Shown piece after piece: positions 3,280 through 55,923 of a stretch of 64,000 nucleotides of DNA. The stretch spans positions 4,804 through 68,803 of the forward strand of contig CAZPDI010000001.1 of assembly GCA_964585425.1 (NCBI GenBank), in the 5' to 3' direction. The stretch's first letter is position 1. Each line of letters begins with the position of its first letter. The notes under the pieces are model-generated. The model was not told the origin of the DNA. It made no database searches and saw nothing but the letters and a program-made list of their open reading frames with translations. The position numbers and the translations under genes were made by a program. The DNA is from an uncultured Candidatus Saccharibacteria bacterium. GTDB taxonomy: Bacteria > Patescibacteriota > Saccharimonadia > UBA4664 > CAYXHD01.

Positions 3280-3365
3280 GCGCGAGTGGTGGAATGGTAG
3301 ACACGCTGGCTTCAGGTGCCAGTGGGGGCAACCCCGTGGAGGTTCAAGTCCTCTCTCGCGCACCA
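3280..3365 (+). tRNA. tRNA-Leu (anticodon CAG), class II with long variable arm, CCA encoded
   Basis: Acceptor stem GCGCGAG/CTCGCGC. Anticodon stem CTGGC/GCCAG with loop TTCAGGT. Variable arm GGGGGCAACCCCGT. T arm GGAGG-TTCAAGT-CCTCT. Discriminator A followed by CCA. Confidence 0.9.
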
Positions 3366-3380: not shown

Positions 3381-5117
3381 TTACATACGCGGGACTAATG
3401 TACTGCGGACCGTCCAGTTTTGAACATTATAAAATCGATCGGCGGCAGTTATGATCTCGCCATCACTAATGCCCTGCACCGTTTCCTCGGTTACATACAG
3501 GTAGTTTGGCGTATAGAGCATAACTGCCGGATCATCGGCACTCCACGTGTCTAGGAAGCTTTTAAGGCGTACTTTGCGTACATTTGGGTCAGTGGTGGCG
3601 CGCGCCGAAACCAGGGCTTTATCGGCCACCGGGCTACTGTATTGTGCAACGTTTAAACCAGGAGCCTTAGCCTGCGAGGAATGCCAGTAGGGATACGGAT
3701 CTAAATCGGCACCGGCATTGAGCCCATACAACAACATGTCGTAATTACGGGGCGTAATATAACTACGCTGCAAGCTGGCGACGTCCAGAACCTCAACATC
3801 CAAAGCAATACCAACAGCAGACAACTGCTTAGTAAGACGCTCGGCGACTGCTTGATAATCATCATTCTGGGCAGTCACCATACTCAAGGTGAGCTGCTTT
3901 CCGTCCTTAGTTCGCACCGAATCGCCACTTTGTGTCCAGCCAGCCGAATCCAACAACTTTTTGGCTTCCTGGATATTCTGTTTAGGTATTTTGTAATCAC
4001 CGGCAGCTGGCAGCTGACTCGTCAAAGCTGGCACAACCAGCGGCTTAGCCTGATCCTGCAAAATAGATGAAATAATTTCTTGACGATCAACGGCCGCAGC
4101 GATGGCTGATCGAACGTTAACGTCGCTCAAAATTGGACTCTGATTCCTCAAGAATAAGGCGACTTCCTCGGGGATCGAAAGGGCATGTAACGTGGTGCCG
4201 CGACCATAGCTGGACCCCGAAGTATTTGCCGAGCGCGCCATACCCATAACTTGATGCTTGCGGAAAGCCGATTGCAGCTCCGCCTGGGTGGCATAGACGC
4301 GCAATACGATACTGTCCAACTTGGGCTTACCACGGAAGTAGTTAGCATTGGCCTGCAAGGTAACTGAGCCGTTTTCGGTATCAAAGTTAGTCACCGCAAA
4401 GGGCCCGCTCCCCACCGGTACCTGGTTAAAGTCGGAGACCCGCAAATCAGCGGCGGCCGTAGTCTTGAGTATGTGTTCCGGCAAAATGCCCACGGTGGTT
4501 GAGTTTAAAAACGCGTCGTAACGTACCGGCAGCGTAACTACCACGGTTGTCGCATTAGGCGTAGCAACCTCAACGCCCTTCCAGGCCGAGGCCATTGGCG
4601 ATCGCGTATCCGGATTTTGAATACGATTAATGGTAAACGCCACGTCGGCCGACGTGACCGGCTGATCATCCTGCCACTTAGCATTGGGCTGGAGCACAAA
4701 CGTATAGGTTCGCCCATCAGGACTTACCGTCCAGGATTTAGCTAGGTCACCCTCAATTTCGGCCTTATGGTTATAGCGAGTCAGGCCAGAGAACACTAGT
4801 CGCGCAGCATCGGCATTGGCGCCGCTATCTGCCAGAATTGGGTTGATGGTAGTAATGCTACCGGTTATACCCTCGGTATAGGTGCCGCCCGGCTGGCCAG
4901 CTAAACGTAAATAAAAACTGCGTAGGGACCTGAGCTGCAAAAAGCTCACGATGCTAATAAGGGCCACGACGCTCAGCCACAACACCGTCACGCGGCGCAC
5001 CGGCTTATTGTTCTTCCAAGGCGTTACGCCCTCATGTTGAACCCGCTCCCAAAAATGTCGAATAGTAAGCGACAAGCGCTCTCTGGTTCTATGTAGGGAT
5101 CGTGGCGTTAGCCCCAT
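3381..5117 (-). CDS. ABC transporter substrate-binding protein, family 5 (peptide/nickel type), membrane-anchored
   Basis: 578 aa with an N-terminal TM anchor. SBP_bac_5-like signature: LAKSWTVSPDGRTYTFVLQPNAKWQDDQPVTSADVAFT. Confidence 0.8.
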   Translation of the reverse strand: MGLTPRSLHRTRERLSLTIRHFWERVQHEGVTPWKNNKPVRRVTVLWLSVVALISIVSFLQLRSLRSFYLRLAGQPGGTYTEGITGSITTINPILADSGANADAARLVFSGLTRYNHKAEIEGDLAKSWTVSPDGRTYTFVLQPNAKWQDDQPVTSADVAFTINRIQNPDTRSPMASAWKGVEVATPNATTVVVTLPVRYDAFLNSTTVGILPEHILKTTAAADLRVSDFNQVPVGSGPFAVTNFDTENGSVTLQANANYFRGKPKLDSIVLRVYATQAELQSAFRKHQVMGMARSANTSGSSYGRGTTLHALSIPEEVALFLRNQSPILSDVNVRSAIAAAVDRQEIISSILQDQAKPLVVPALTSQLPAAGDYKIPKQNIQEAKKLLDSAGWTQSGDSVRTKDGKQLTLSMVTAQNDDYQAVAERLTKQLSAVGIALDVEVLDVASLQRSYITPRNYDMLLYGLNAGADLDPYPYWHSSQAKAPGLNVAQYSSPVADKALVSARATTDPNVRKVRLKSFLDTWSADDPAVMLYTPNYLYVTEETVQGISDGEIITAADRFYNVQNWTVRSTLVPRM

Positions 5118-5136
5118 AACATATCCTATCCGTTAC

Positions 5137-5358
5137 TTACTTCTTAGCCAGTAGACCGAGAATCAGCGACAGCACAAACACGACACCGCTAATGATAGTG
5201 AGGTTAAATACTACCTTTTCGGCTCCTCGTTTGTTTCTAAAATTTCCTGAGCTGCCACCAAAGGCATCACCCAAGCCGCTGCTTTGTTGCTGGAGTAAAA
5301 TCATAATCGTCATGATTATGGCCGATATTACGGTAATAGTGTAAAAGAATGTTTTCAT
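5137..5358 (-). CDS. secG: Preprotein translocase subunit SecG
   Basis: 73 aa with two TM segments and the central motif LLQQQSSGLGDAFGGSS typical of SecG. Confidence 0.7.
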   Translation of the reverse strand: MKTFFYTITVISAIIMTIMILLQQQSSGLGDAFGGSSGNFRNKRGAEKVVFNLTIISGVVFVLSLILGLLAKK

Positions 5359-5720
5359 GCTGTTGCCTTCTCCGATCTGTCATCTAATAAATAATTGACG
5401 CCCCAAATAATAATAACTGCCATTATGGCTGAGCGTACCGAGGTAATGGTGAACTTGGGATATAAAAAGGTTACCAGGTAGAGCATCAAGGCGTTAATCA
5501 CCAGCATAAACAGGCCGAGCGTCACGGCGATGAGCGGCAAGGTAAGCACGACGATCAAGGGGCGCAACAAGGCATTCACGATACTGAAGATGAGTGCCGC
5601 CCAGATGAGCACGCGTAATCGACCAGTATAATCAATACCGCTTAGCAGTGTAGCAGCAGCCCACAACCCTAAAAAGTTGACGATCCAGCGGAGTATAAAG
5701 CTTTTTGCGATGTAACTCAT
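5355..5720 (-). CDS. DUF360 / holin-family-4-like small membrane protein
   Basis: 121 aa with four hydrophobic segments. IVNALLRPLIVVLTLPLIAVTLGLFMLVINAL matches the DUF360 pattern. The 4-nt overlap with secG suggests an operon. Confidence 0.55.
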   Translation of the reverse strand: MSYIAKSFILRWIVNFLGLWAAATLLSGIDYTGRLRVLIWAALIFSIVNALLRPLIVVLTLPLIAVTLGLFMLVINALMLYLVTFLYPKFTITSVRSAIMAVIIIWGVNYLLDDRSEKATA

Positions 5721-8222: not shown

Positions 8223-8693
8223 GTGAAACGCATCGGACTACTCTTTGGCTCGTTTAACCCATTGCATAATGGACATCTATTATTATCTGACTCTGCGCAA
8301 AAAAGTACCGAGCTCGATGAGGTCTGGTTTATAGTACAGCCTCAGAACAGCTACAAGCCCATTACGGAGTTATTAGATTATGACACACGTAAAAATCTGA
8401 TTATTACATCCGGTTTATATCTTTTTGAGCCCAAGACGAAAAATTATGCTCATTATATTCTTGAGACACTTAAAGAGATTAAAGGCGCTGACCTGACGCT
8501 CATTCTTGGCGAAGACCTATCGGCAAGCTTCCCCTATTGGGAGGATTACCACGAGATCAAAGAGTTGGCACAAGTGTATGAATCACCGCGCCTGGACGAT
8601 ATCTCATCCGGACTGGTTCGTGATCGCTTACAGGCCGGCCAGCCTATTGACCATCTGGTTCCACGCTCAGTAGCCGATTACCTTCGGCCGTAA
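8223..8693 (+). CDS. nadD: Nicotinate/nicotinamide-nucleotide adenylyltransferase-like (cytidylyltransferase fold)
   Basis: 156 aa with a GTG start. [17 protein letters not shown] is the (H/T)xGH nucleotidyltransferase motif in NadD context. Confidence 0.65.
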
Positions 8694-9879
8694 TGAGCAC
8701 GTCGTCTTCGATGCGGACACCTATCCCCTCTTCGGCGATATAAATACCCGGCTCACATGTCAGCACCATACCGGCTTCGAAGACTGCTTCACGACTGCCC
8801 ACGTCATGAGCGTCAAGACCTAAAAAGTGTTAGGTAATATGTTTAAAATAACGACGATAAGCTGGCCAACCTAGCTCACCTTCTAACTCATCGGCCTTTT
8901 CTAAAGTTTCAAATAATCCAATCTCAACCAACGTATTAGCCATGATCTGAGCCGCTTGGCGTTCAAATTCGTTGAATTTGACTCCTGGTTTCATCAAAGC
9001 TAATGCCTCTTGCTGGACCAATCGGACTGTATCTATAATCTGCTGTTGGCGTTCACTCAACTCATCAATCGAAAACGTTCGCGAGATATCCGCCGCATAA
9101 CCTTCGACTTCGACGCCGACATCAAACAAGACCAGATCACCCTTATTCATTTTAGTCGCATCTGGCTGATGATGAATAATACAGGTATTTTTGCCAAATG
9201 AGATAATAGGCGGGAAGGCTTGCTCATAGCCTCGCGCGCTACAAAATTTAATAAATTCGGCAGCTATTTCTCGCTCAGTAACCCCCACTTTCAACAATGA
9301 TTTGGCGTGAGCTATGGCTAGATGCGTCTCAGATATAGCCTGGGATATCACATCAACTTCTTCATCAGATTTAATCACGCGCAAATTTTCTATTTCGGGA
9401 TTGATCGCCGCCAACTCTACATCTGGATGAGATTCTTTGATCAGGTTCCATAACTGCCAAGCTGCTATCTGACTCACTGCAGTATCTGGCATGTCTATAT
9501 ACACAATTTGTGGCGAATCCTTCAGGAGCTTTGCTATCAGCTCATCTCGCTCTTTATACTCCTGGATCGAATCTATACCGCTCTGAGTCCTCAGTTCAGC
9601 AATCTGATTGCTACGCCCCTCCCAGACTGCCATAAAGGGATGGAGCTGTGTAATGTACAGCTCTTCAATAATACGCTCATCCTGGGTCTTTTTAAGCACC
9701 AAAATCGCATCTGGCTGACTGATACCGGTCAGATACAAAAAATTATTACTCTGCCGGAACGGATAGGTGGCGTCGGCAGTACGCTCAATCTCTGAATTAC
9801 CCGCCAGTATAAGCATACTATCTGGAGCCATAGTGGCCGCTATCTGTTGACGCCGATGTAGATAAGTCGCGCTATTCAT
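8644..9879 (-). pseudogene. pepP: Xaa-Pro aminopeptidase (M24B, PepP-like) interrupted by one in-frame TAA at 8830-8832
   Basis: The track ORF 8830..9879 ends ..YFKHIT*. The same frame continues [61 protein letters not shown] to TAG 8644-8646. That stretch carries the conserved M24 metal-ligand blocks (GLDxHD, EPG, RIED). Confidence 0.75.
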
Positions 9880-9906
9880 ACCTCTATACTACCATGTCAA
9901 AACCTA

Positions 9907-9936
9907 TTGACATTACTATCACTTGGGAAGATAATA
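9907..9936 (+). promoter_or_regulatory. Candidate promoter of GC-rich cassette 1a
   Basis: TTGACA (9907-9912), an 18-nt spacer, then ATAATA (9931-9936). A 5' stem-loop TGAGCGT/ACGCTCA at 9948-9966 follows. Confidence 0.5.
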
Positions 9937-9977
9937 TCACACATGTTTGAGCGTCTCTGACGCTCAGATAGAAACCC

Positions 9978-10318
9978 GACAAAGCCAACCTACTACCCCG
10001 AAAGAGGTCCCGTGACCAAAATCACGAACCGCAGCATCGCTCCTGCTGGCAGCATCTCCCAGATCGCTCAGCTCCACCAGGACGGAGAGATCGACCGCGA
10101 CCAGACCACTCAGGTGATCGAAGTGGTTGCGGAACATGCCGCAGAGGCGCCAAACACCTGTCCGCGCTGTCAGCGCGCCAACTGCCCAGTGACGAGGGGC
10201 GGCAACTGCCAGTTGCCAGACATGAAGGTGGTGGATCACCTGGTTCGTCAGCTGCAGACCTCCAACTGATCTCGAGTCGGTCCTATGGGATCGAGGGGCG
10301 ACGAGGCTTGGCTTTGTC
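9978..10318 (+). repeat. 11-bp perfect inverted repeat bracketing cassette 1a (leader versus 3' hairpin loop)
   Basis: GACAAAGCCAA at 9978-9988 and TTGGCTTTGTC at 10308-10318. The 3' copy lies in the loop and 3' arm of the hairpin GGGGCGAC(10295-10302)/GTCACCCC(10316-10323). Confidence 0.7.
10012..10269 (+). CDS. GC-rich ORFan, 85 aa, with a C-terminal Cys cluster (CPRCQRANCPVTRGGNC)
   Basis: GTG start 5 nt after the SD AAGAGG. GC3-rich codons. No recognisable family. Confidence 0.55.
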   Translation: MTKITNRSIAPAGSISQIAQLHQDGEIDRDQTTQVIEVVAEHAAEAPNTCPRCQRANCPVTRGGNCQLPDMKVVDHLVRQLQTSN

Positions 10319-10335
10319 ACCCCCTTATAAAATAG

Positions 10336-10364
10336 TTGACTTTACATGATTATTAAAGTATAGT
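10336..10364 (+). promoter_or_regulatory. Candidate promoter of GC-rich cassette 1b
   Basis: TTGACT (10336-10341), a 17-nt spacer, then TATAGT (10359-10364), inside an AT-rich 80-nt spacer between two GC-rich ORFs. Confidence 0.6.
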
Positions 10365-10403
10365 TATTGTCATGCTTGCATACGAAGTATGCGCGCACCT
10401 TAC

Positions 10404-11207
10404 GACAAAGCCAACAACTACACCGAAAGGGGTCCCGATGGGATCTTCTGGAATTCTGGGGTTTCCCAAGGCTGCACACCGCGCCCCCACCATCAGCGAG
10501 GGGTACCAGGAGTACGTCGAGGAGATGACCGGCCTGGCCGTGTGCATGATCTGCGATAGCGGAACATGCCCCGGCGCCAGTGGACGCGCTTGCCCCTATG
10601 AACTCGACGTCTGCACCGTCTGCTGGCAGCTCGACTGCATTAGCGTCTTCGGTCACGACTGCCCTTCGGAGGAACGCTGCAACAACTGCGGTCACCTCCG
10701 GAACGAATTCGGCCATTACAGCAACTGCTCAATGCCCACAATGAAGCTGTGCGACGAGTGCGGGAGCGCAACCTGTCGCGTCAACCCGCCAAAGGAAATG
10801 CGAGAGGAGTACCCGTCGGACTACAATCCGTACTGGGATGACCACCACAGCATCTTCGATACGCTGGGCTGCCTCTTGGGTAGCCCGATCAGCGAGGAAG
10901 AACGGATCGCGGAAGAGATCGCATCGTGTTGGGCTCCGCGCACCGACCAGATGTCCCGAGATCGAGTACGGCAACAGATGCTGAGAACATGGATTGATCG
11001 TGATCTGGACAAAGCAGCTGAGGAAGCTCAGCAGCGCGCCGACCAGATGTCCCAGTCCATGCATCAGCTCACCGAGCTTGCGGACGACTACGACGACGGA
11101 CTGATCTCCGAGAACGTGGTTCTGATGCTCCTCCGGGCTGATCATCGCGGTGTACGGCTCTCCGGGTGACCTTTGAGGGTCGGTGAGCGTCAAGGCTTGG
11201 CTTTGTC
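10404..11207 (+). repeat. Second copy of the same 11-bp inverted repeat pair, bracketing cassette 1b
   Basis: GACAAAGCCAA at 10404-10414 and TTGGCTTTGTC at 11197-11207. The 3' copy lies in the hairpin GGTGAGCGTC(11182-11191)/GTCACTCACC(11205-11214), whose 13-nt loop aAGGCTTGGCTTT is conserved. Confidence 0.7.
10438..11169 (+). CDS. GC-rich ORFan, 243 aa, Cys-rich N-terminal half (14 Cys, four CxxC pairs) and acidic helical C-terminal half
   Basis: The start was moved to ATG 10438, behind the SD GAAAGGGG; the track start 10372 lies in the promoter. CxxC pairs are CMIC, CTVC, CNNC and CDEC. No family recognised. Confidence 0.55.
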   Translation: MGSSGILGFPKAAHRAPTISEGYQEYVEEMTGLAVCMICDSGTCPGASGRACPYELDVCTVCWQLDCISVFGHDCPSEERCNNCGHLRNEFGHYSNCSMPTMKLCDECGSATCRVNPPKEMREEYPSDYNPYWDDHHSIFDTLGCLLGSPISEEERIAEEIASCWAPRTDQMSRDRVRQQMLRTWIDRDLDKAAEEAQQRADQMSQSMHQLTELADDYDDGLISENVVLMLLRADHRGVRLSG

Positions 11208-11275
11208 ACTCACCTAAGTGTATATACACGATAAATACATTTAGGTGAGTATTATTAAGATAAACACAACTTCTA

Positions 11276-11304
11276 TTGACAAATAGGGTTTAGTTTGCTA
11301 TACT
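11276..11304 (+). promoter_or_regulatory. Candidate promoter of GC-rich cassette 1c
   Basis: TTGACA (11276-11281), a 17-nt spacer, then TATACT (11299-11304). Confidence 0.65.
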
Positions 11305-11365
11305 TATGCGCAATCTGGTGGAACACCCATCCGATAGAACACAGACCACAACCCAAGGAAAGCCC

Positions 11366-12103
11366 ATGTCTCAGCTCGTCATCGTCCAGGGCCCCAAGCC
11401 CCGCACGTCCGCGGTGTCCGACAAGGATGCCCACAACCTCCGCCTCCAGGCGGACAAGGTGCTGGCCAGGCACCGCGGTGATCTCCCCCAGGAGATCGTC
11501 ACGCAGCTGACCAGCCCGATGCCCGGCATCGTGGGCATGGGACTGCACGACGCGGCCTCCTGGATCAAGCAGCGCACCGCCAACCTCAAGCTGCAGTACG
11601 TGCAGCAGCACCCCGACTGCGAGGCGGCCATGGCCCTCAAGACCCGAGTCGACAACGTCCTCAACGGCGAGTTCGGCGACAAGGTCAAAAAGAGCCTCGA
11701 CATGCGTGGTCAGCGCATCCTCGAGCTGGACCTGTACCAGATCTTGAGCACCGACCAGCTGAAGAGCTTCGCCCACTTCGTCAAGAAGGCCGAGGCAGTC
11801 GAGGGTCGCTTGCAGACCGAGAAGGCACGCAAGGCGGTGCCGGCCCAATCGCTCCAGATGCTGTTCCCGTCCAAGGAGAAGCGCGAGCGCAAGCCGAAGA
11901 AGGTCAAGCCGGCCTACGCCGGTCTCCCCGCACCGTCCACCGGGATCGTCACCGACTGGAAGAGCGACGTCGGCAGCGTCGGTGCCCCGAACCCCCAGGG
12001 TCCGGCGCCGGCACGCGGCGTCACCCTCCGCAAGTCCGACAAGGCTCGCGCCAAGGGAGTGAAGGGTGGTGGCGTCAAGACCCGTCCGGGGCGACGCAAC
12101 TGA
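11366..12103 (+). CDS. GC-rich ORFan, 245 aa, with a Lys/Arg/Pro/Gly-rich basic C-terminal tail
   Basis: The start was moved to ATG 11366, behind the SD AAGGAAAG; the track start is 11306. The tail reads KEKRERKPKKVKP..KARAKGVKGGGVKTRPGRRN. No family recognised. Confidence 0.55.
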   Translation: MSQLVIVQGPKPRTSAVSDKDAHNLRLQADKVLARHRGDLPQEIVTQLTSPMPGIVGMGLHDAASWIKQRTANLKLQYVQQHPDCEAAMALKTRVDNVLNGEFGDKVKKSLDMRGQRILELDLYQILSTDQLKSFAHFVKKAEAVEGRLQTEKARKAVPAQSLQMLFPSKEKRERKPKKVKPAYAGLPAPSTGIVTDWKSDVGSVGAPNPQGPAPARGVTLRKSDKARAKGVKGGGVKTRPGRRN

Positions 12104-12119
12104 CCAGTTGATCTGCGTT

Positions 12120-12153
12120 CCCCGAGTCATGACATCGTCGTCATGGCTCGGGG
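12120..12153 (+). terminator. GC-rich hairpin closing cassette 1c, convergent with the uvrA 3' end
   Basis: CCCCGAGTCATGAC-atcgtc-GTCATGGCTCGGGG forms a 14-bp stem with one G-U pair. No clear U tract follows. Confidence 0.5.
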
Positions 12154-12163
12154 GATCAACACT

Positions 12164-15016
12164 TTATGACTTATTAGAAAATATACGATTCAAGTAAATA
12201 CCGGTATGGCTGCCTTTTACTTTGGCGACTTTTTCGGGGGTACCTTCGGCTATAACGGTACCGCCACCAGCACCACCTTCGGGGCCCATGTCGACGAGCC
12301 AGTCGCTGGATTTGATGATGTCCAGATTATGTTCGATAATCAGCACTGAGTTACCAGTATCGACGAGACGGTTGAGAACCTGCAGGAGACGTCGGACGTC
12401 TTCGAAGTGCAGACCGGTAGTCGGTTCGTCGAGGATGTAGAGAGTTTTACCGGTGCTACGGCGGCTTAGCTCGGAGGCGAGTTTAATACGCTGAGCTTCG
12501 CCACCACTAAAGGTTGTGGCTGATTGACCGAGGTGAATATAGCCCAGGCCGACATCATTAAGGGTTTCGAACTTGCGGCGAATGGCTGGAATGTTTTCGA
12601 AGAACGCCACCGCTTCTTCGACAGTCATGTCCAAGACTTCGCTAATGTTTTTACCTTTATAACGAATTTCTAAGGCTTCACGGTTATAACGTTTGCCCTT
12701 ACATTCGTCGCAGGTTACATAAACGTCTGGCAAGAAGTGCATTTCGATCTTGATAATACCGTCACCACGGCAGACTTCGCAGCGCCCACCCTTGACGTTA
12801 AAACTAAAGCGCCCGGCTTTATACCCACGAATCTTGGCTTCGGGCGTGGATGCAAATAATTCACGAATGTTGCTAAAGACGCCAGTGTAGGTAGCCGGAT
12901 TAGATCGCGGTGTGCGACCGATTGGCGATTGATCAATACTGATGACTTTGTCCAGATTCTTGAGGCCTTCAATGTCATCGTGTTTGCCAGGAACATCGCC
13001 GGCTCGATGATATACTTGCGCGAGTTTCTTGGAAAGAATGTCGTTAATCAGGCTTGACTTACCAGAGCCCGACACACCGGTAACCGTCGTCATCATGCCC
13101 AGAGGCAATGATACATCGATGCCTTTAAGATTATGCTCGCGGGCATTTTTAATAACTAAGTGCTTGCCATTGCCTGGTCGGCGCTTTTTAGGTATCTCAA
13201 TTTTACGAGCACCACTAATGTACTGGCCGGTTAAACTTTCTTTAACTTTGGCAACTTCGTCTGGCGTACCGGCAGCCACCACGTTACCGCCGTGTTTACC
13301 AGCAGCTGGGCCGATATCGATCACGTAATCGGCCGTGCGGATAGTGTCTTCGTCGTGTTCGACGATAATGACGGTATTACCAAGATTGCGTAGACGCTCC
13401 ATGGTGACGATCAACCGATCATTGTCGCGTTGGTGCAGACCAATGCTTGGTTCGTCCAGGATGTAGAGTACGCCCATCAGACTGGAGCCAATTTGCGTAG
13501 CCAAACGAATACGCTGAGCCTCGCCACCAGCTAGGGTGTTAGCACTGCGATCAAGCGTAAGGTATTGCAGGCCAACATCCTGCAAAAAGCTCAGACGCGC
13601 GCAAATCTCTTTCATGATTTGTTTGGCAATCACTTGATCTTTTTCGCTAAGTTCCAAGCCATCGAAGAACTCTACAGCGTCGCCAATACTATAGGTTGTC
13701 ACATCCGCGATGTTTTTACCGTTGACGGTAACGGCCAACACTTCGGGCTTGAGGCGCTTGCCTTCACACACCGGACAAGGACGTTCGGCCATGTACTTTT
13801 CGATTTCCTTGCGCACAAAGTCACTATCGGTGTCATGATATCGTCGCTCCATATTGGGAATGACGCCCTCAAATGTTGACTGATAGGTACGGCCGCCTGG
13901 ACCGCGTACTGGAATCTTCTCGTCCCCTGTTCCGTACAAAATCGTCTTGAGGTCGTTGGGTTTCATGGCGTTTACGGGCGTATCAATACTAAATCTAAAC
14001 TTATTAGCCACACCATTGAGTAGTTTGGTATACCACGTCATCCGACTCGTAGTACGACTCCATGGGCGAATAGCTCCTTCGTTAATGCTGAGGCGACGAT
14101 TTGGGATGACAAGCTCAGGGTCAACTTCTAAGCGTATACCAAGTCCCGTACAGTGCGGGCAGGCACCATGCGGTGAGTTAAAACTAAAGTTACGGGGAGC
14201 AATTTCTGGAAAACTGATCTCGCGGTGCACCGGACAGGCAAAGTGCTCGCTAAAGTCTTTTTCTTCATCAGTATCCACAAAGTGAACCTTAACGATGCCG
14301 TCACCCAGGCCCAACGCTTGTTCCACCGATTCGCTCAATCGCTTAACGACATCTTCGGCAATAACCAATCGATCGACGATGGCCTCTACGGTGTGCTTTT
14401 TTTGTTTATCGAGATCCGGGAATTCATCAATATCATATAGAGTGCCGTTAACCCGCAAGCGCGAATACCCAGCTTTTTTAAGTTCTTGCACGACACCGCG
14501 ATGCTCGCCCTTTTTGTCGCTAACTACTGGCGCAATAATCATGATTTTAGAATCTTGCGGGGATTTCATGATTTGGCTCACAATTTGATCGGCCGATTGT
14601 TTGGTGACTTCGCGACCGCAGACGGGACAATGTGGCACGCCAACGCGCGCGTACAAAAGACGCAAATAATCATAAATTTCCGTAACGGTACCAACCGTAC
14701 TGCGCGGATTACGGCTCGACGATTTTTGATCAATAGAAATCGCTGGGCTCAGACCGTCAATTTGATCGACGTCTGGTTTTTCCATAAGACCCAAAAACTG
14801 CCGGGCGTAGGCACTTAGGCTCTCGACGTAACGGCGCTGACCTTCGGCATAAATGGTATCGAATGCCAAGCTAGACTTGCCTGATCCAGAAAGGCCAGTA
14901 ATAACGACCAGCTTATCGCGTGGAATCTCCACGTTAATATTTTTGAGATTATGCTCCCGGGCACCACGAACTACGATTTTGTCATGCATAACAGACGGTT
15001 CTCCACGGTGACTCAC
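12164..15016 (-). CDS. uvrA: Excinuclease ABC subunit A
   Basis: 950 aa with two ABC ATPase modules ([18 protein letters not shown]) and zinc-finger Cys clusters. The true start may be the internal Met at 14989. Confidence 0.95.
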
Positions 15017-30028: not shown

Positions 30029-30088
30029 ATAAGCTTCCTTTTATCTGGTTAGATTATAGCAAAGCCGGCACATTTGCACCACAATTAC

Positions 30089-30117
30089 TTGATTAAATAT
30101 TACTTTTATAGTAGAGT
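30089..30117 (+). promoter_or_regulatory. Candidate promoter of GC-rich cassette 2
   Basis: TTGATT (30089-30094), a 17-nt spacer, then TAGAGT (30112-30117). Confidence 0.45.
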
Positions 30118-30181
30118 TTGCTTATTCTTTTACAATCTAGCTAATCAGCCCACCACAACCAAACAAACAAAGGAGCGAGCG

Positions 30182-30556
30182 ATGATCACATGTGAAGTGC
30201 AGGACCAGGCTGGCGGGAAGTCCACGAGCGTCATCACCCTCGGTGATGCCCTGGCTGCCGTTGCCTACCTGATCGGCATCAGCGGGAACTCCCAGCTTGA
30301 GTACCACGAGCTGATCGAGGGCCAGTCGTTGACCATCATCTCGGAAGGACATGCCCTCGTTGGGCAGATCGAGATGCCGGACTTCGAGGAGGAGGAGCCC
30401 TACTTCGGCCTGATGTACACCTTCTCCAGCAACGGCGATCGCGACTTCGAGCTGTTCAGCCTGCTGGTTCTGCCGGCAATGTTGCTGAACCTGCAGCAAT
30501 GCGAACCGCAGGTGATCATCGAGCTCGAGCGGATGCGCCAACCGGTGACCGCCTGA
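30182..30556 (+). CDS. GC-rich ORFan, 124 aa, acidic
   Basis: The start was moved to ATG 30182, behind the SD AAAGGAG and a CA-rich leader; the track start 30074 lies in the AT-rich promoter. No family recognised. Confidence 0.55.
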   Translation: MITCEVQDQAGGKSTSVITLGDALAAVAYLIGISGNSQLEYHELIEGQSLTIISEGHALVGQIEMPDFEEEEPYFGLMYTFSSNGDRDFELFSLLVLPAMLLNLQQCEPQVIIELERMRQPVTA

Positions 30557-30573
30557 GGTTGCGGTGAGTAGGC

Positions 30574-30595
30574 CAGGTTCCCTCCGGGGAATCTG
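30574..30595 (+). terminator. Hairpin with C(UCCG)G tetraloop closing cassette 2
   Basis: CAGGTTCCC-tccg-GGGAATCTG forms a 9-bp stem with one G-U pair. No U tract. It is convergent with the HAD gene. Confidence 0.45.
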
Positions 30596-30630
30596 TGCCG
30601 ACCACCGGCTGATTGGCTAGATAAAAAGAT

Positions 30631-31191
30631 TTATGATAAAAGTTTTTGAACTTGCGAGATCGAGGTATACAGCTCGGCTTGTAAGCCGGCTCGCAGGGCG
30701 CCGTCGACGTTGGCTTGGCGATCATCAAAGAATATAACATCTTGAGCCTCAAAACCTAATTGCTGTACAGCATACTGGTAAATACGAGCATCGGGCTTCA
30801 TCATATTTAATTCACCCGAAATAAAGATTTGATCAAAATGCCGAGTAATACCATGACCTTCCATATACGGCCGTAAGCTTGAGCCATCATTAGAAAGCAC
30901 GGCGGTTTTTATTCCCTTTTGTCGCAACTGATCAATGACTGCCAGCAAGGGGTGGTTGATAGCTACTTCGTTTTTAAGCTCCTGCTTAACAACCGAAACG
31001 GGACGTCCCACCCCGGCGGCTAATGCTTCGAAATACTGGTCTAGGCTAATCTCGTCCAGATCAATTTTGCGAGATGCCTCTTTTACCACATCATGGATGT
31101 CAGGATGTTGCGCTACTTGGTTTTCGGCCCAAATAATAACTTCGTCCGTTTGGATAACGCCATAAAAATCAAAGATGGCCGCTTTAATCAT
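30631..31191 (-). CDS. HAD-superfamily hydrolase (subfamily IA-like)
   Basis: 186 aa with AAIFDFYGVI (motif I), LSND (motif II) and FFDD (motif IV). Confidence 0.7.
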   Translation of the reverse strand: MIKAAIFDFYGVIQTDEVIIWAENQVAQHPDIHDVVKEASRKIDLDEISLDQYFEALAAGVGRPVSVVKQELKNEVAINHPLLAVIDQLRQKGIKTAVLSNDGSSLRPYMEGHGITRHFDQIFISGELNMMKPDARIYQYAVQQLGFEAQDVIFFDDRQANVDGALRAGLQAELYTSISQVQKLLS

Positions 31192-39977: not shown

Positions 39978-40006
39978 TTGCATTATGTCGCAAAATATGA
40001 TTAAAT
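39978..40006 (+). promoter_or_regulatory. Candidate promoter of GC-rich unit 3a
   Basis: TTGCAT (39978-39983), a 17-nt spacer, then TTAAAT (40001-40006) with TG two nt upstream. The aaatNtgaTTAAAT block is shared with the unit 3b promoter. Confidence 0.5.
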
Positions 40007-40040
40007 AGTATGGTTCTGCTACCTATCCCTAAGGATTCCA

Positions 40041-40415
40041 ATGAATGCACCTGCCCGTCCCATGCCCGACATCACCGATGTGGAGCTGACCAAGAAGATC
40101 ATCGATGAACGTGTGAAGCACCACAACCTGCGCCATGAAGATGGTGAAGCGATCTGGATGGTAGTCACGGCCATCGGTCATGCCATCAAGATCGGTGATC
40201 CTCAGTACAGCCCGATGATCGACCGCAACGTCACGGGGCTGCGCAACGAGGCGAGGCCAGGCGAAGTTCCGGTCATCTTGCTGTCCGACCTGAACCGCAT
40301 CTTCTGTGACGACACGTTGATACGCGAGCTGCAGCGGGTGTTCCCGAGCATCGTCAATGATGCGGCGCGCGTTGCCTGCTGGAAGTTCCGCAACTGCATG
40401 TACGGATGCGACTGA
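40041..40415 (+). CDS. GC-rich ORFan, 124 aa (variable partner of module copy 1)
   Basis: ATG follows the SD TAAGGA. GC3-rich codons. It ends in the junction GAC TGA TC ATG. Confidence 0.55.
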   Translation: MNAPARPMPDITDVELTKKIIDERVKHHNLRHEDGEAIWMVVTAIGHAIKIGDPQYSPMIDRNVTGLRNEARPGEVPVILLSDLNRIFCDDTLIRELQRVFPSIVNDAARVACWKFRNCMYGCD

Positions 40416-40417
40416 TC

Positions 40418-40627
40418 ATGCGCCTTCGGATCCCCTGGCGCAAGCAAACCGTGCCGCCGCCACCCGCGACTGTCGCGATGAAGGCTGCGCCCCTGGTGCC
40501 GCCACCTCATCGCCGGATGACGGCCGAAGAACGCGCTGCGTGCTGCCAAGATCAGAGGAAGATCAAGCTGCGTGCTGCCAAGCGTTGTCGGCGCAAGGCC
40601 CGAAAGCGCCGACTGCGCAACAAGTAA
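40418..40627 (+). CDS. Pro-rich / strongly basic mini-protein, 69 aa (conserved partner, copy 1)
   Basis: The start was set at ATG 40418, matching the paralog junction TGATCATG; the track start is 40406. It shares the core VAMKxAPLxPPPxRRMTAEERAA and a K/R tail with ORF 42234..42467. Confidence 0.55.
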   Translation: MRLRIPWRKQTVPPPPATVAMKAAPLVPPPHRRMTAEERAACCQDQRKIKLRAAKRCRRKARKRRLRNK

Positions 40628-40647
40628 CCCCCGTGAGGCGGATCGCC

Positions 40648-40680
40648 GAAAGGTCCCTCTTGCGGGGGATCTTTCGTTAT
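40648..40680 (+). terminator. Terminator hairpin, divergent copy of the conserved island-3 terminator
   Basis: GAAAGGTCCC-tcttgcg-GGGATCTTTC followed by GTTAT. Confidence 0.55.
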
Positions 40681-40687
40681 GGTGATA

Positions 40688-40716
40688 TTGATTTATACCT
40701 GTAAATGTGATTAAAT
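40688..40716 (+). promoter_or_regulatory. Candidate promoter of GC-rich unit 3b
   Basis: TTGATT (40688-40693), a 17-nt spacer, then TTAAAT (40711-40716) with upstream TG. Confidence 0.5.
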
Positions 40717-40750
40717 TTCCCTATTCCGTTTCGAGTCCAAAGGAGAGACC

Positions 40751-40984
40751 ATGACGGACGCACATGCCACGGCCGTCTCCACGGTCTATTTTTGGCTCGA
40801 GTACGAGTTGGGTATCGATAATCCTGATCACGTTGAACTGACCATGATTATCGAGAATGGCTGGCTGCGCTATCGGTGCCCGGCCCACGACATCACCCCG
40901 CTTGAAATCGCCCGCCTCGAAGCTGCCTGCCGGCACCACGCCCATTCTCTTGAAGTGCACCTGAACCTGGAGGTTCAATCATGA
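40751..40984 (+). CDS. GC-rich ORFan, 77 aa
   Basis: ATG follows the SD AAAGGAGAG. ATGA overlap at 40981-40984 couples it to the next ORF. Confidence 0.5.
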   Translation: MTDAHATAVSTVYFWLEYELGIDNPDHVELTMIIENGWLRYRCPAHDITPLEIARLEAACRHHAHSLEVHLNLEVQS

Positions 40985-41733
40985 TTGTCCACAAGCACGA
41001 CATCGATACCGCAGCTCGTCTGGCCGCCAAAGAGCGGTTCATGAACGAGTCATGGCTGGATGATCGCAAGGTGCGATCATGGTTCGCTTGGCTCGGTATC
41101 CGTCCTGACGGTCATCAAGCATTGCGCATCTTGCGCGCTGTGCATGCCACGGCTGCCACCGTGCGTGAGTACAAGATCCACCATCGCCACACGCGCTTCG
41201 GTCGAACGATGCGCCTGCAGCGCCGGCTCCCACCGTGGCCCGCCAAGTACGCGGATACCCCGGTCATCAATGCCGCGCAGATGCTGCTGGTGACTCAGCG
41301 CACGGACTACATCCACCTCACGGAGCTGACGCGACCAATTACGGGTACCAGTTATCGGCACGGCGACAATCGACGCGTCGATATGGAAACGTGCAAGATG
41401 TTCCTGGAGAACGTGCAGAGCAAGTTCATGCGCGAAGCCGTTTGGTCAGATGAGTTGGTATGTATCGAGAGCTTTGCGCGGCTCGGCCTGACGCCCGATG
41501 AGCTGCTGGTGGCCGAGATGGCTCTGATCCGTCTGATGAGTAGGTATCGGCACGAAAAGGGGCTTACCTGGTATCTGATGCCGACCTATGGCAGCCGGAG
41601 CCGCCGCTTGCACACCCTCACCATGGGTGATTTCTTGAACATCACCCGATTTCTCCAACCCAACTATGGCGACACCGACATGGAGTTTCTCATGACGCTG
41701 GCCGATCGTCTGCGTTCGCGACTTGCGACCTGA
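40981..41733 (+). CDS. GC-rich ORFan, 250 aa, Arg/His-rich
   Basis: Translationally coupled to the 77-aa ORF. No motif recognised. Confidence 0.55.
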   Translation: MIVHKHDIDTAARLAAKERFMNESWLDDRKVRSWFAWLGIRPDGHQALRILRAVHATAATVREYKIHHRHTRFGRTMRLQRRLPPWPAKYADTPVINAAQMLLVTQRTDYIHLTELTRPITGTSYRHGDNRRVDMETCKMFLENVQSKFMREAVWSDELVCIESFARLGLTPDELLVAEMALIRLMSRYRHEKGLTWYLMPTYGSRSRRLHTLTMGDFLNITRFLQPNYGDTDMEFLMTLADRLRSRLAT

Positions 41734-41753
41734 TCTCGACACATACCCTCGCG

Positions 41754-41796
41754 GGGGCTTTTCTACGGAAAGGTCCCTGCGGGGGATCTTTCGTTT
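41754..41796 (+). terminator. Conserved 43-nt terminator element, copy A
   Basis: The element reads GGGGCTTTTCTACGGAAAGGTCCCTGCGGGGGATCTTTCGTTT. It contains the mini-hairpin CTTTTC-tacg-GAAAGG plus a 10-bp stem GAAAGGTCCC/GGGATCTTTC and a T-rich tail. Confidence 0.65.
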
Positions 41797-41801
41797 ATAG
41801 C

Positions 41802-41830
41802 TTGCAATATCAATACTTTAAATGTATAAT
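41802..41830 (+). promoter_or_regulatory. Candidate promoter of GC-rich unit 3c
   Basis: TTGCAA (41802-41807), a 17-nt spacer, then TATAAT (41825-41830) preceded by TG. Confidence 0.65.
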
Positions 41831-41859
41831 TTGTAAATCCGTACGACCAAGGAGTACCC

Positions 41860-42231
41860 TTGACCGAAGCCAATACCCTACCCAAGGCCGATGCCAGCGT
41901 CAAGCTGTCCGACGACATCATCGCAAGCTGCTACGAGGGCTGCGATCCCCGTGAGTCCGATCGAGCTCGCGGCTGCATCGCCGCCCTCAAGGACCTGCTA
42001 CGGCTCGCCGAGAAGACGCCGAACGACGCGCGCTACCAGGAGATCCGGGAGTTCGACGCCGACACCCTGACCGTTGGCCAGTTCATCACCCTGATGTACC
42101 TGCCGGCGATGTCGCCGAATCAGCCCCGCCAGCTGATGCGCAACGTGCGTAGCAACTGGGGGCGACTCAACCAGCGAGTTCTCATCGAGCTGCGAGACAA
42201 GCTGGATGAGCGCTACGAGCCCCAGGACTGA
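41860..42231 (+). CDS. GC-rich ORFan, 123 aa (variable partner of module copy 2)
   Basis: TTG start 5 nt after the SD AAGGAG. It ends in the same GAC TGA TC ATG junction as 40041..40415, but the two proteins show no visible similarity. Confidence 0.5.
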   Translation: MTEANTLPKADASVKLSDDIIASCYEGCDPRESDRARGCIAALKDLLRLAEKTPNDARYQEIREFDADTLTVGQFITLMYLPAMSPNQPRQLMRNVRSNWGRLNQRVLIELRDKLDERYEPQD

Positions 42232-42233
42232 TC

Positions 42234-42467
42234 ATGGGCATCTGGAACTCTCGGCGCAAGAAGACGACACCACCGCCACCTCCTCCTGCACCTCCTCCGC
42301 CGCCCGCGGCTGTCGCGATGAAGACTGCACCACTGGCGCCGCCACCGCGTCGCCGAATGACGGCCGAAGAACGCGCCGCTCTCAAGCTGCCCAAAGTGAA
42401 GGCCCGGCAGCGCCTGGCCAAGAACCGACGCGCCAAGGTCAGGAAGCGCAAGCACAAGAAGTCCTGA
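42234..42467 (+). CDS. Pro-rich / strongly basic mini-protein, 77 aa (conserved partner, copy 2)
   Basis: Paralog of 40418..40627. It contains PPPPPPAPPPPPAAVAMKTAPLAPPPRRRMTAEERAA and the tail KARQRLAKNRRAKVRKRKHKKS. Confidence 0.6.
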   Translation: MGIWNSRRKKTTPPPPPPAPPPPPAAVAMKTAPLAPPPRRRMTAEERAALKLPKVKARQRLAKNRRAKVRKRKHKKS

Positions 42468-42479
42468 TCGCGCCCCTGT

Positions 42480-42523
42480 GGGGACTTTTCTACGGAAAGG
42501 TCCCTGCGGGGGATCTTTCGTTT
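42480..42523 (+). terminator. Conserved 44-nt terminator element, copy B
   Basis: The element reads GGGGACTTTTCTACGGAAAGGTCCCTGCGGGGGATCTTTCGTTT. It is identical to copy A except for one inserted base. Confidence 0.65.
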
Positions 42524-42534
42524 TTAAATGAGAA

Positions 42535-44393: not shown

Positions 44394-44422
44394 TTGCTTT
44401 TTTATAAGTTTTATGCTAGTAT
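44394..44422 (+). promoter_or_regulatory. Candidate promoter of GC-rich cassette 4
   Basis: TTGCTT (44394-44399), a 17-nt spacer, then TAGTAT (44417-44422). Confidence 0.45.
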
Positions 44423-44457
44423 ATACGCATCTTGGCCGTCTAGCAAAAGGAAACATC

Positions 44458-44868
44458 ATGCCAAGCGCACAGACCATCCTCCCTCTGACCGCCGAACAGG
44501 TGGCCATGCCCGTGACCGCTGCCATCCTCACCACGGAGGACATCATCGGCGACCACGGGAGGTACCCGAAGGACATCGCTCACAGCTTGTCCACCATCTG
44601 CGAGTTCCTGCAGGAGGTCAAGCGGGAGGTCAAGCAGAGTCCAAGGGCCTACCTCGGCTGGTTGGAGTTGGCGGATGAGAACGGGGTGCGCTTCAGCGAG
44701 CGCGATTACCCCAGCATCACCGCAGGGTTCCTCCTGGCCGTGATGGAATCCAGCGCCGCCTGGGGCACCGTGATGAAGCACGGTCCGGAGGACTACTGCT
44801 TCGAGCAGCTGAACATGCTGAGGACGGCGGTCTACGCCCTCCTCTTCAAGCGGTCGCTGGCTGGCTGA
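44458..44868 (+). CDS. GC-rich ORFan, 136 aa
   Basis: The start was moved to ATG 44458, behind the SD AAAAGGAAA; the track start 44413 lies in the promoter. No motif recognised. Confidence 0.55.
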   Translation: MPSAQTILPLTAEQVAMPVTAAILTTEDIIGDHGRYPKDIAHSLSTICEFLQEVKREVKQSPRAYLGWLELADENGVRFSERDYPSITAGFLLAVMESSAAWGTVMKHGPEDYCFEQLNMLRTAVYALLFKRSLAG

Positions 44869-44893
44869 GGTTCTTCCTCCGCCAGCACCACGC

Positions 44894-44940
44894 CCCACTC
44901 GGGGTCTTCTACGGAAGACTCCGAGTGGGTTTTTCGTTTA
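44894..44940 (+). terminator. Intrinsic terminator with C(UACG)G tetraloop closing cassette 4
   Basis: CCCACTCGGGGTCTTC-tacg-GAAGACTCCGAGTGGG forms a 16-bp stem with one G-U pair, followed by TTTTTCGTTTA. It is convergent with typA. Confidence 0.75.
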
Positions 44941-47269: not shown

Positions 47270-47320
47270 CCCACCTACGACAAGCCCACCGCTGGTTGTA
47301 GGTGGGCTTCGTCGTTTATA
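47270..47320 (+). terminator. Hairpin region with two alternative pairings after the 124-aa ORFan
   Basis: CCCACCTAC (47270-47278) can pair with GTAGGTGGG (47298-47306). Alternatively ACGACAAGCCCACC (47277-47290) pairs with GGTGGGCTTCGTCGT (47301-47315). TTTATA follows. Confidence 0.45.
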
Positions 47321-47326
47321 AGGTTA

Positions 47327-55771: not shown

Positions 55772-55839
55772 GGTGAGTCCTTTCGGGACGTTGTGAGTGA
55801 ACGAACAAAGGTGTGCCTAAGCACACCTCCATAACCATT

Positions 55840-55867: not shown

Positions 55868-55871
55868 GCGT

Positions 55872-55901: not shown

Positions 55902-55923
55902 CGCGAACCGTTGAATACGGGGC

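Follow-up and report, generated by a model that had tools for sequence, protein, structure and literature searches.

Complementary leader and 3' elements in GC-rich orphan-gene cassettes of an uncultured Saccharibacteria bacterium: candidate strands of a long-distance RNA helix

Between a pepP-like gene and uvrA of an uncultured Candidatus Saccharibacteria bacterium (assembly GCA_964585425.1), two adjacent GC-rich cassettes, 1a and 1b, each carry a short sequence in the leader and its exact reverse complement just after the stop codon. The DNA analysed, hereafter the window, comprises 64,000 nucleotides (positions 4,804 to 68,803 of contig CAZPDI010000001.1), and coordinates refer to it unless a related locus is named. 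We propose, with a probability of about 0.5, that the two complementary 11-mers are the strands of a long-distance RNA helix that would join the 5' and 3' untranslated regions (UTRs) of small, independently transcribed cassettes, and that this helix is rivalled by a local hairpin at the 3' end. The elements are conserved in related genomes, the hairpins that contain them use G·U pairs and are strand-specific, the long-distance helix is thermodynamically preferred, and a second cassette of different sequence has the same design.

Complementary repeats in cassettes 1a and 1b

The 11-mer GACAAAGCCAA is present exactly at 9978-9988 and 10404-10414 on the + strand, and its exact reverse complement at 10308-10318 and 11197-11207, which confirms the preliminary description of this DNA. 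The identical blocks exceed that description: the leaders share the 13-mer CGACAAAGCCAAC and the 3' ends the 17-mer AGGCTTGGCTTTGTCAC, and the likeness of the two leaders runs on through ACTAC, CCGAAAG and GGTCCCG up to the start codon. The features of the two cassettes, with their open reading frames (ORFs), Shine-Dalgarno (SD) sequence and GC content at third codon positions (GC3), are as follows.

9907..9935, + strand: promoter 1a, TTGACA-17-GATAAT, 11/12 matches; kept in relatives L103 and L104
9945..9969, + strand: 5'-terminal stem-loop of the 1a transcript, GUUUGAGCGUC-UCU-GACGCUCAGAU; begins about 3 nt past the predicted start site
9977..9989, + strand: leader 13-mer of 1a, CGACAAAGCCAAC; its core, 9978-9988, complements 10308-10318
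~9999-10006, + strand: SD of ORF1a, GAAAGAGG
10012..10269, + strand: ORF1a, 85 aa, GTG start, GC3 0.76, orphan
10277..10294, + strand: small 3' hairpin of 1a, from folding; also in L103
10295..10323, + strand: hairpin A of 1a; UUG loop 10308-10310, 3' arm 10311-10318, 11-mer TTGGCTTTGTC at 10308-10318
10336..10364, + strand: promoter 1b, TTGACT-17-TATAGT, 10/12 matches
10373..10397, + strand: 5'-terminal stem-loop of the 1b transcript, core GCAUAC-GAA-GUAUGC
10403..10415, + strand: leader 13-mer of 1b, CGACAAAGCCAAC; its core, 10404-10414, complements 11197-11207
10438..11169, + strand: ORF1b, 243 aa, 16 Cys, GC3 0.73, orphan
11182..11214, + strand: hairpin A of 1b; loop 11197-11199, 11-mer 11197-11207
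11208..11250, + strand: hairpin B, ACUCACCUAAGUGUAU...AUACAUUUAGGUGAGU, then UAUUAUU; overlaps the outer 3' arm of hairpin A

The core of the 1b leader also complements 10308-10318, 85 nt upstream. The 86-nt 1a leader folds with z=-5.2; its 5' stem, which is more stable on the + than on the - strand, is kept in L103 through G·U changes, and its 3' arm differs in L104.

Perfect 11-nt inverted repeats 50-1300 nt apart are not rare in this DNA: the window holds 27, against 15.6 +/- 3.8 in block shuffles, and a lone one belongs to the common background. The significance of the present pattern lies elsewhere, because it has four copies in equivalent UTR positions that are conserved in relatives. 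Matches with at most one mismatch number 11 where 1.5 are expected, a count reached in 0/100 shuffles, and pure chance is a negligible explanation of the whole pattern. One further exact copy of the 11-mer, at 32271 (- strand) within a glutaredoxin gene, is missing from the L109 orthologue and was taken as probably a chance occurrence since it is not conserved there. The hairpin CGACGAAGCCCACC...GGTGGGCTTGTCG downstream of a - strand gene (~47290-47330) resembles the leader 13-mer at 11/13 positions, probably by coincidence, and a candidate homology of the small 3' hairpin of 1a to the start region of 1b (CCTATGGGATC and CCGATGGGATC) was rejected as chance-level for 11-mers with one mismatch.

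Scans for the 17-mer AGGCTTGGCTTTGTCAC returned six matches in IMG/VR and 93 in JGI metagenomes, all in unrelated DNA with neither hairpin context nor upstream leader, and the leader pattern gave no match in either collection. Among the approximately 140 kb of related Saccharibacteria loci that were fetched (L007, L008, L102-L116), the 10-mer is confined to this one locus. The feature is real, conserved and, judged from these scans, lineage-restricted, with no copy found outside the lineage.

A G·U-paired hairpin in place of a conserved loop

The preliminary description had pictured the 3' copies as a conserved 13-nt loop on a covarying stem. The outer stems that it gave, GGGG/CCCC in 1a and GGTGAG/CTCACC in 1b, agree with our folds. 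The loop does not: in the folds, an almost unbroken stem that includes G·U pairs carries a UUG loop of only 3 nt, GGGG.GACGAGGC-UUG-GCUUUGUC.CCCC in 1a and GGUGAG.G.CAAGGC-UUG-GCUUUG.C.CUCACC in 1b. A complement search of the DNA type misses G·U pairs. The conserved element is a stem arm, and the covariation is modest and mostly one-sided, with 2/15 pairs changing on both sides among five sequences.

The 11-mer TTGGCTTTGTC consists of the UUG triloop and the 3' arm of hairpin A, so that any pairing with the leader must displace the 5' arm and could not proceed by loop kissing. The 5' arm itself (GACGAGGC in 1a) corresponds to GACAAAGC of the leader, except that G stands where the leader has A. 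As this A-to-G copy pairs by weaker G·U, the leader would be the stronger, all-Watson-Crick rival for the 3' arm.

All structures considered, namely the 5' hairpins, hairpin A, hairpin B and the hairpin of cassette 4 (described below), gain 2-12 kcal/mol of stability on the sense strand through their G·U pairs, and are therefore RNA features of the + transcript. Hairpin A lacks the direct U-tract of a canonical intrinsic terminator, being followed by CUUAUAAAA in 1a and UAAGUGUAU in 1b, and the terminator scan made no call there. Hairpin B, with UAUUAUU behind it, is probably the real terminator and the better candidate of the two; its arms are altered in L104 with pairing kept. Its first 3-6 nt are shared with the outer 3' arm of hairpin A, and this sharing suggests that opening of hairpin A would favour hairpin B. 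Searches of Rfam 15 at the gathering score matched only a tRNA at 3280-3362, and an E-value search of 9880-12200 returned nothing beyond sub-threshold noise from eukaryotic microRNA and small nucleolar RNA families.

Predicted long-distance pairing

The complementarity between leader and 3' end lies within the predicted transcripts; the preliminary description had held that its claim would fail if the transcripts ended before the 3' copy. The panhandle closure put forward there is also what thermodynamic models of the full transcripts predict. Hairpin A has a folding energy of -16.8 to -18.3 kcal/mol, against -21.5 to -32.6 kcal/mol for the duplex of the leader with the opened hairpin region. 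Partition-function folds of the complete 1a, 1b, L103 and L104 transcripts, which are equilibrium predictions, assign the leader:3'-arm pairs a probability (P) of 0.86-1.0 and the local hairpin approximately 0, and the outcome is alike despite four different ORF bodies. When hairpin B is included in the 1b fold, the panhandle helix stops exactly at the start of hairpin B, which stacks on it. In the minimum-free-energy fold of 1a, part of the SD is paired, with a partner that is not conserved among variants. Duplex energies of whole UTRs were dropped as uninformative, because long GC-rich sequences always score well, and were replaced by a 14-nt window scan.

Conservation in related genomes

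The loci of relatives were reached through the contigs of ORF1c homologues (ORF1c belongs to a third cassette, 1c, next to 1b) and through cluster members of neighbouring host proteins. Identity of housekeeping DNA to the window is 92-94% in L102/L103 and 70-79% in L104-L106. The distant relative L008, another uncultured Candidatus Saccharibacteria, was the sole return of a scan of GTDB genomes (185,579 species representatives) with the pepP query, at 56% identity, and its site is empty. The content of the interval between uvrA and pepP is as follows.

L008: none; genes 19 bp apart and co-directional
L111/L112: one 1c-type cassette
L104/L106: one 1a-type and one 1c-type cassette
L102/L103: one 1a-type and one 1c-type cassette
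Window and L007: 1a and 1c types plus 1b
L105: contig begins within the 1a-type ORF; hairpin A of that cassette and a 1c-type cassette retained

By this comparison, the island is an insertion with changing cassette content. The elements are held around different ORFs. L103 is about 98% identical to 1a over the promoter, 5' hairpin, leader and first 19 codons; likeness then fades out and is back abruptly at the stop codon, so that the 85-aa allele of L103 has only its first 19 residues in common with ORF1a. The ORF of L104 encodes an unrelated 101 aa, of which only the first five codons, VT(K/D)IT, are shared. The preliminary description had held that its claim would fail if the motifs occurred only here and the cassettes were a simple recent tandem duplication. 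The cassettes are not such a duplication, and the motifs occur in related genomes as well, around different ORFs. Its statement that ORFs 1a and 1b are unrelated holds nearly, with the reservation of a BLASTP match (E=0.006) over a C-x2-C...NC-x-[LM]P-x-MK stretch.

In 1a, 1b, L102/L103 and L104/L106, the leader 13-mer does not vary. The positions that flank it differ (ten nucleotides upstream, 6 of about 10 downstream), and the promoter spacer and 5' hairpin diverge too. At the other end, the 3' arm GCTTTGTCAC is identical in all variants, and over the 16-17 nt of 3' arm plus loop there is one change, in the loop. The five variants of hairpin A read GGGGCGACGAGGC-TTG (1a), GGTGAGCGTCAAGGC-TTG (1b), GGGTGGCGAGGC-TTG (L102/L103), GGGTGGCAAGGC-CTG (L104/L106) and GAGTGGCAAGGC-CTG (L105). 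Their variation is confined to the loop and the 5' arm (GACGAGGC, GUCAAGGC, GGCGAGGC, GGCAAGGC), and nearly all 5'-arm changes turn G·U into A-U or a mismatch into a pair; changes among relatives more generally are of the kinds G·U to A-U or G-C to G·U. Hairpin A positions are paired in 92% of cases, against at most 53% with slid partners, with three pairs varying on one side and two on both. For a small sample of five variants, these counts support a selected hairpin. Invariance of the 3' arm while the 5' arm drifts points to a second constraint on the 3' arm, for which the invariant complementary leader is the obvious candidate; this pattern of variation is the one that a 3' arm with two partners would show.

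A second case of the same design

Cassette 4 (30089-30630) sits between ppa and a HAD hydrolase gene, 20 kb from 1a/1b.

30126..30150, + strand: cassette 4 5' arm; core ATCTAGCTAATCAGCC at 30135-30150, plus TCTTTT at 30126-30131
30182..30556, + strand: ORF4, 124 aa, GC3 0.75, orphan
30564..30630, + strand: cassette 4 3' end; terminator-like hairpin 30564-30606, 3' arm GGCTGATTGGCTAGAT at 30607-30622, AAAAGA

The helix between its ends comprises 16 nt with one U·G pair and can be extended to about 25 nt through TCTTTT/AAAAGA. Its energy, -24.6 kcal/mol, was attained by 0/100 shuffles, the best of which reached -19.0. The full-length fold gives it P ~1, with the terminator-like hairpin at the junction inside a long 5'UTR:3'UTR duplex. 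Cassette 4 is 98% identical in a relative of 93% identity (L109, L110), where the repeats are unchanged and the hairpin has one change from G·U to A-U. It is an independent second case of the same design in a different sequence. The scan for leader:3'-UTR helices covered all cassettes of the window, and complementarity of the ends as a rule for all GC-rich cassettes was rejected, since it holds for the 1a/1b family and cassette 4 only; the design is recurrent and not universal.

Proposed course of events and points that weigh against it

From these folds we infer the following course of events, and with it a function of the closed RNA. The transcript would begin with a protective stem-loop, followed by a single-stranded A/C-rich 13-mer about 32-35 nt from the start, then the SD, the GC-rich orphan ORF and, past the stop codon, hairpin A, whose 3' arm (GCUUUGUC with the UUG loop) is a perfect Watson-Crick complement of the leader. 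Hairpin A may fold first, co-transcriptionally; in the completed RNA, the leader would then oust its 5' arm, which would leave a closed panhandle stacked on the terminator hairpin B. The closed form might shield its two ends, the 5' stem-loop and hairpin B, from end-dependent RNases, and it may damp translation until the RNA is opened or trimmed, as in the hok (tac/fbi) and aapA1 mRNAs.

Several observations weigh against this proposal. Equilibrium folding favours long-range helices unduly and ignores kinetics and translating ribosomes. Sequestration of the SD is predicted inconsistently across variants, and the promoters and terminators are consensus matches only. The promoter of cassette 4 is an 8/12 match found by eye where the scan made no call; the 5' arm lies about 2 nt past the start site that it implies. 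Comparable complementarity is absent from cassettes 2a, 2b, 2d and 3 and from 1c, the neighbour in the same island (scan), as well as from L111 and L116 (by eye). The loop change in L104 cuts the leader complement from 11 to 10 nt, the eleventh pair being A×C. With leader and 3' arm both constant, their own pairing shows no covariation, and invariance fits a sequence-specific protein or DNA site equally well. The sample, finally, consists of three independent leader lineages and five hairpin variants only.

Alternative explanations

Leader and hairpin A might be two separately useful elements that do not pair in vivo, the leader being a translation or stability element or an operator and hairpin A a 3' stabiliser or terminator, with their complementarity a historical by-product, for instance if a hairpin arm arose as an inverted copy of the leader. 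This explanation, which we regard as unlikely, draws on the invariance of both blocks, a pattern that sequence-specific recognition predicts and RNA pairing alone does not need, on the background frequency of 11-nt inverted repeats, and on the fact that most other cassettes manage without complementarity. It asks, however, for a demanding coincidence, namely that two independently conserved blocks should, in each lineage, happen to complement one another exactly over 10-11 nt. The freedom of the 5' arm beside a fixed 3' arm also implies an extra constraint on the latter, and cassette 4 repeats the 5'/3' design with unrelated sequence.

A DNA-level role, to which we give a rather low likelihood, would make the inverted 11-mers, or hairpin A as a whole, recombination sites, through which cassettes are inserted and deleted or the ORF is flipped with respect to its fixed promoter (phase variation). 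Cassette 1b is an 889-bp segment that is present in the window and L007 and missing in L102/L103 and in the outgroup L104/L106; by the outgroup comparison, the state without 1b would therefore be ancestral. Both junctions of this segment lie within copies of hairpin A that have a 17-nt identical core, which would make hairpin A at least a recombination breakpoint, yet ordinary homologous recombination or tandem duplication can account for the indel. The idea of the preliminary description that the repeats are termini of a small mobile cassette finds some support in this indel bounded by two hairpin copies, but the 11-mers do not delimit the variable DNA, and the motif was found nowhere else in the collections scanned. 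The locus does gain and lose cassettes (none in L008, one in L111, two in others, three in the window), the promoters lie outside the inverted repeats, and the repeats of cassette 4 coincide with the boundary between GC-rich and AT-rich DNA. Direct repeats of 4 nt adjoin the 11-mers in 1a (ACCC, 9974-9977/10319-10322) and L104 (ACTC, 6853-6856/7228-7231), but the corresponding 4-mers mismatch in 1b (TTAC/ACTC) and L103 (ACCC/ACTC), so that they may be duplication-like or due to chance.

Other observations fit a DNA element poorly. No recombinase, transposase or integrase is recognisable in the ORF list of the window or, by Pfam, in 10 unassigned ORFs, and the ORF has the same orientation in every recovered assembly (L007, L102-L104, L106, L109, L110). 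Dispersed copies are absent from the ~140 kb of related loci, and the exact motifs are absent in proper context from IMG/VR and the JGI metagenomes. Alleles remain alike past the SD and over the opening 5-19 codons, and are so once more from the stop codon onward, which places the allele boundaries inside the ORF, and the hairpins lean on G·U pairs, of which DNA makes no use. Exchange of cassette DNA is apparent. Identity reaches 99% over 11193-11931 between lineages with 92-94% housekeeping identity (window and L102/L103), and over the two stretches of cassette DNA compared (11193-11931; 30029-30640 compared with L109/L110) identity is 98-99%. ORF1a has had its body, and ORF1c its C-terminus, replaced outright. 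This looks like recent cassette exchange with mosaic alleles, and ordinary homologous recombination would be sufficient for cells that appear to swap cassettes readily.

Pairing in trans or between neighbours seems quite improbable. It would be effected by a fragment derived from the 3' UTR that contains hairpin A and acts on sibling leaders, or within a read-through 1a-1b RNA, where the 3' arm of hairpin A of 1a would pair with the 1b leader 85 nt downstream. The shared 11-mer pair would let any leader pair with any 3' arm, and read-through into 1b is plausible with neither U-tract nor hairpin B behind hairpin A of 1a. Both elements are, however, retained in relatives that have just one 1a-type cassette, so that a sibling is not needed; there is no sign of a small-RNA promoter of its own or of a processing signal, and there is no Rfam match.

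Comparison with known systems

The long-distance helix that we propose has close parallels in hok and aapA1, whose mRNAs are locked by 5'-3' helices of about 11 bp. The hok mRNA is closed at full length by the tac/fbi fold-back, a long-distance interaction of the 5' UTR with the 3' end (PMC9841398). Similarly, an 11-bp 5'-3' helix in the aapA1 mRNA of Helicobacter pylori (~250 nt) stabilises the RNA, blocks its translation and acts as the terminator, and 3' processing reopens it (PMC5416894). The cassettes share with hok a 5'-3' helix, here a predicted one, a competing metastable partner for one of its strands and a small self-contained transcription unit; they differ in that the competing partner, which is the hairpin A 5' arm, belongs to the 3' end, whereas it is at the 5' end in hok, and in the lack of an overlapping mok-like frame. 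Helix length and position are very similar to those of aapA1/IsoA1. The toxin of that system is a 30-aa peptide, in contrast to the larger, unrelated ORFs here, and the 1a/1b helix has no U-tract after it, which makes termination by hairpin B more likely.

Type I toxin mRNAs of the hok and aapA kind have such a long-distance helix, an SD that is hidden in the closed form and freed by 3' processing, and an antisense RNA antitoxin, encoded in cis or in trans, with a promoter of its own. The cassettes have a helix of this kind too, at least as predicted (10-11 bp of exact complement, P 0.86-1.0 in four variants). Their toxins are hydrophobic membrane proteins of less than ~60 aa, whereas ORF1a and ORF1b (85 and 243 aa) are hydrophilic, with a grand average of hydropathy of about -0.5, maximal 19-aa Kyte-Doolittle windows of 0.22 and 0.95, respectively, and no transmembrane segment. 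No antisense RNA gene is evident in the promoter scan of the cassettes either: the only promoter-like site on the - strand is weak (9/12, 10373-10346) and is missing in the single-cassette relatives. By analogy, the finding is best seen as an interaction of the hok/aapA type that would work outside those families.

In icaR of Staphylococcus aureus and hbs of Bacillus subtilis, translation and RNase access are tuned by base pairing, within one mRNA, of a 3' UTR segment with the 5' UTR. The 3' UTR of icaR pairs with the SD itself, in contrast to the proposed cassette helix, which lies 10-20 nt upstream of the SD.

Among DNA elements, integron attC cassettes also form arrays of small, unrelated and often orphan ORFs with imperfect hairpins, in numbers that vary between strains, and the start of the cassette complements part of the 3' hairpin. 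Integron cassettes lack promoters and lie next to an intI integrase gene with attI and Pc. The present cassettes differ from them in that each has its own promoter (sigma70-like, 10-11/12 matches), the hairpin is about 30 nt long and G·U-dependent, the core sites RYYYAAC/GTTRRRY are absent from hairpin A (GGGGCGACGAGGCTTGGCTTTGTCACCCC), and no integrase is found in the ORF list of the window or the 10 unassigned ORFs scanned with Pfam. Like invertons, ORF1a and ORF1b are flanked by perfect 11-nt inverted repeats, but neither the second orientation nor a recombinase was found in the recovered assemblies or the ORFs of the window. Membership of the miniature inverted-repeat or terminal-inverted-repeat transposons, which have target-site duplications and many dispersed copies, does not fit, as the 4-mers match in 1a and L104 only and the motif is confined to a single locus in the ~140 kb of related loci. 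Phage morons are autonomous promoter-gene-terminator units of deviant composition and are not defined by 5'/3' complementarity. The cassettes resemble them as promoter, ORF and terminator units that differ in composition from their surroundings and sit between resident genes. They lie in a bacterial chromosome (uvrA-pepP), in contrast to the prophage location of morons, and no phage homologues were found.

Cassette proteins and translation starts

ORF1a and ORF1b had no homologue among 5.8 billion proteins, and ORF1c has few. Scans of the cassette ORFs against Pfam, PHROGs, PADLOC and NCBIfam (ten ORFs per scan, with cassette 4 in the latter two) gave no match, nor did tblastn against 50,697 phage records. 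AlphaFold models were too poor for fold searching, with predicted local distance difference test (pLDDT) scores of 57 for ORF1c and 41 for ORF1b. ORF1b contains a 20-nt direct repeat (10938-10957 and 11034-11053, GCGC[A/G]CCGACCAGATGTCCC) that encodes a repeated (T/A)DQMS. Antisense ORFs starting at GTGACAAAGCC were rejected because their GC3 pattern is not of the coding type, as was a 16-codon ORF in the 3' UTR of 1a, the ATG of which is lost in L103. No relevant literature on GC-rich cassettes in Saccharibacteria was found.

Exactly 7 nt past the -10 box lies an ATG in 1a (9943), 1b (10372) and L104 (~6829), and the leader alignment shows CATG to be invariant. This ATG opens a mini-ORF of 5-8 codons within the 5' hairpin in 1a and L104 and is in frame with ORF1b in 1b, where 10372 is also the predicted transcription start. 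Leaderless translation from this start-site ATG is possible.

Genomic setting and other cassettes

The window has a GC content of 48%, and most of its genes are on the - strand; uvrC, the peptidase M24 (pepP-like) gene, uvrA and uvrB surround the finding. Members of the G1 group of Saccharibacteria have a GC content of 47 +/- 3% (PMC7427843), with which the 48% agrees, so that describing the chromosome as G1-like fits. Nearly identical public contigs exist (L007, 99.8%; L107, 100%), and the sequence is therefore natural. The island between pepP (8830-9879, - strand) and uvrA (12164-15016, - strand) consists of three + strand units with GC contents of 55-67%, each with a sigma70-like promoter (10-11/12 matches), a leader with SD, an ORF and a downstream hairpin. 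GC3 is 0.73-0.90 in the island ORFs and 0.43-0.51 in host genes, a strong coding signature of a kind that seems typical of high-GC donors. The third unit of the island is given here.

11276..12160, + strand: cassette 1c; promoter 11276-11304, ORF 11366-12103, palindromic terminator 12107-12160

The 1c-type terminator is a long palindrome (12107-12160; L104, 8262-8315; L111, 14915-14975) with clear two-sided covariation (CATGAC/GTCATG, CGTGAC/GTCACG, CACGAC/GTCGTG). The pepP-like gene consists here of two ORFs, 8830-9879 and 8644-8802 (- strand), and of a single gene of 395-411 aa in relatives; the split may reflect a frameshift, a pseudogene or a sequencing error.

Further GC-rich orphan cassettes on the + strand occupy 40000-42530 and 44400-44935 (GC3 0.67-0.89). 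Three of their terminators form one family (GGAAAGGTCCCTGCGGGGGATCTTTCGTTT), and two small ORFs rich in Pro, Arg and Lys (40406-40627 and 42234-42467) are paralogous. Genes for NYN-domain proteins and a C-terminal fragment of HsdR border these cassettes, whose ORFs have no match in Pfam, PHROGs, PADLOC or NCBIfam. L116 carries at 4870-5540 (- strand) a promoter-equipped GC-rich cassette of 154 aa, between an unannotated 339-aa ORF (downstream of an aldolase gene) and a PfkB gene, where the window is empty, and this indicates that cassette insertion occurs at many sites. The dihydroorotase-like, pyrE-like and pyrF-like genes at 54689-57693 (- strand) have a GC3 of 0.66-0.78, compared with a host average of ~0.5, and these pyrimidine-synthesis genes were probably acquired.

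Implications for Saccharibacteria

To our knowledge, long-range 5'-3' pairing in bacterial mRNAs is documented in a handful of cases, mostly type I toxins, and post-transcriptional control in Patescibacteria, and in Saccharibacteria among them, is essentially unexplored. If the proposed helix is real, a known pairing principle would appear in a new setting, on larger orphan genes that are not toxin-like. The principle is known; what is new is the setting, the decoy arm weakened by G·U pairs and the biology of the cassettes. The design, with a perfect Watson-Crick leader, a G·U-weakened rival arm and a terminator hairpin that overlaps the switch, offers a cheap and clear experimental target, and Saccharibacteria strains can now be cultivated and transformed.

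The genome is dotted with small promoter-equipped orphan cassettes (GC 58-67%, GC3 0.73-0.90) that are gained, lost or replaced among close relatives. It is conceivable, if doubtful, that Saccharibacteria possess autonomous expression cassettes of a class of their own, passed on horizontally, in which a consensus promoter, a 5' stem-loop and self-closing UTRs frame hyper-variable GC-rich orphan ORFs, placed antisense between housekeeping genes. The UTR modules would then lock or stabilise the mRNA until it is processed, as in a type I toxin message, and act as homology arms for ORF swapping by naturally competent cells. Their ORFs could encode factors for an arms race against the bacterial host or its phages, an idea that arises because they keep host-like (actinobacterial) codon usage across lineages and change fastest in the genome. 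A grasp of how the cassette mRNAs are handled would give a first handle on what the cassettes are for.

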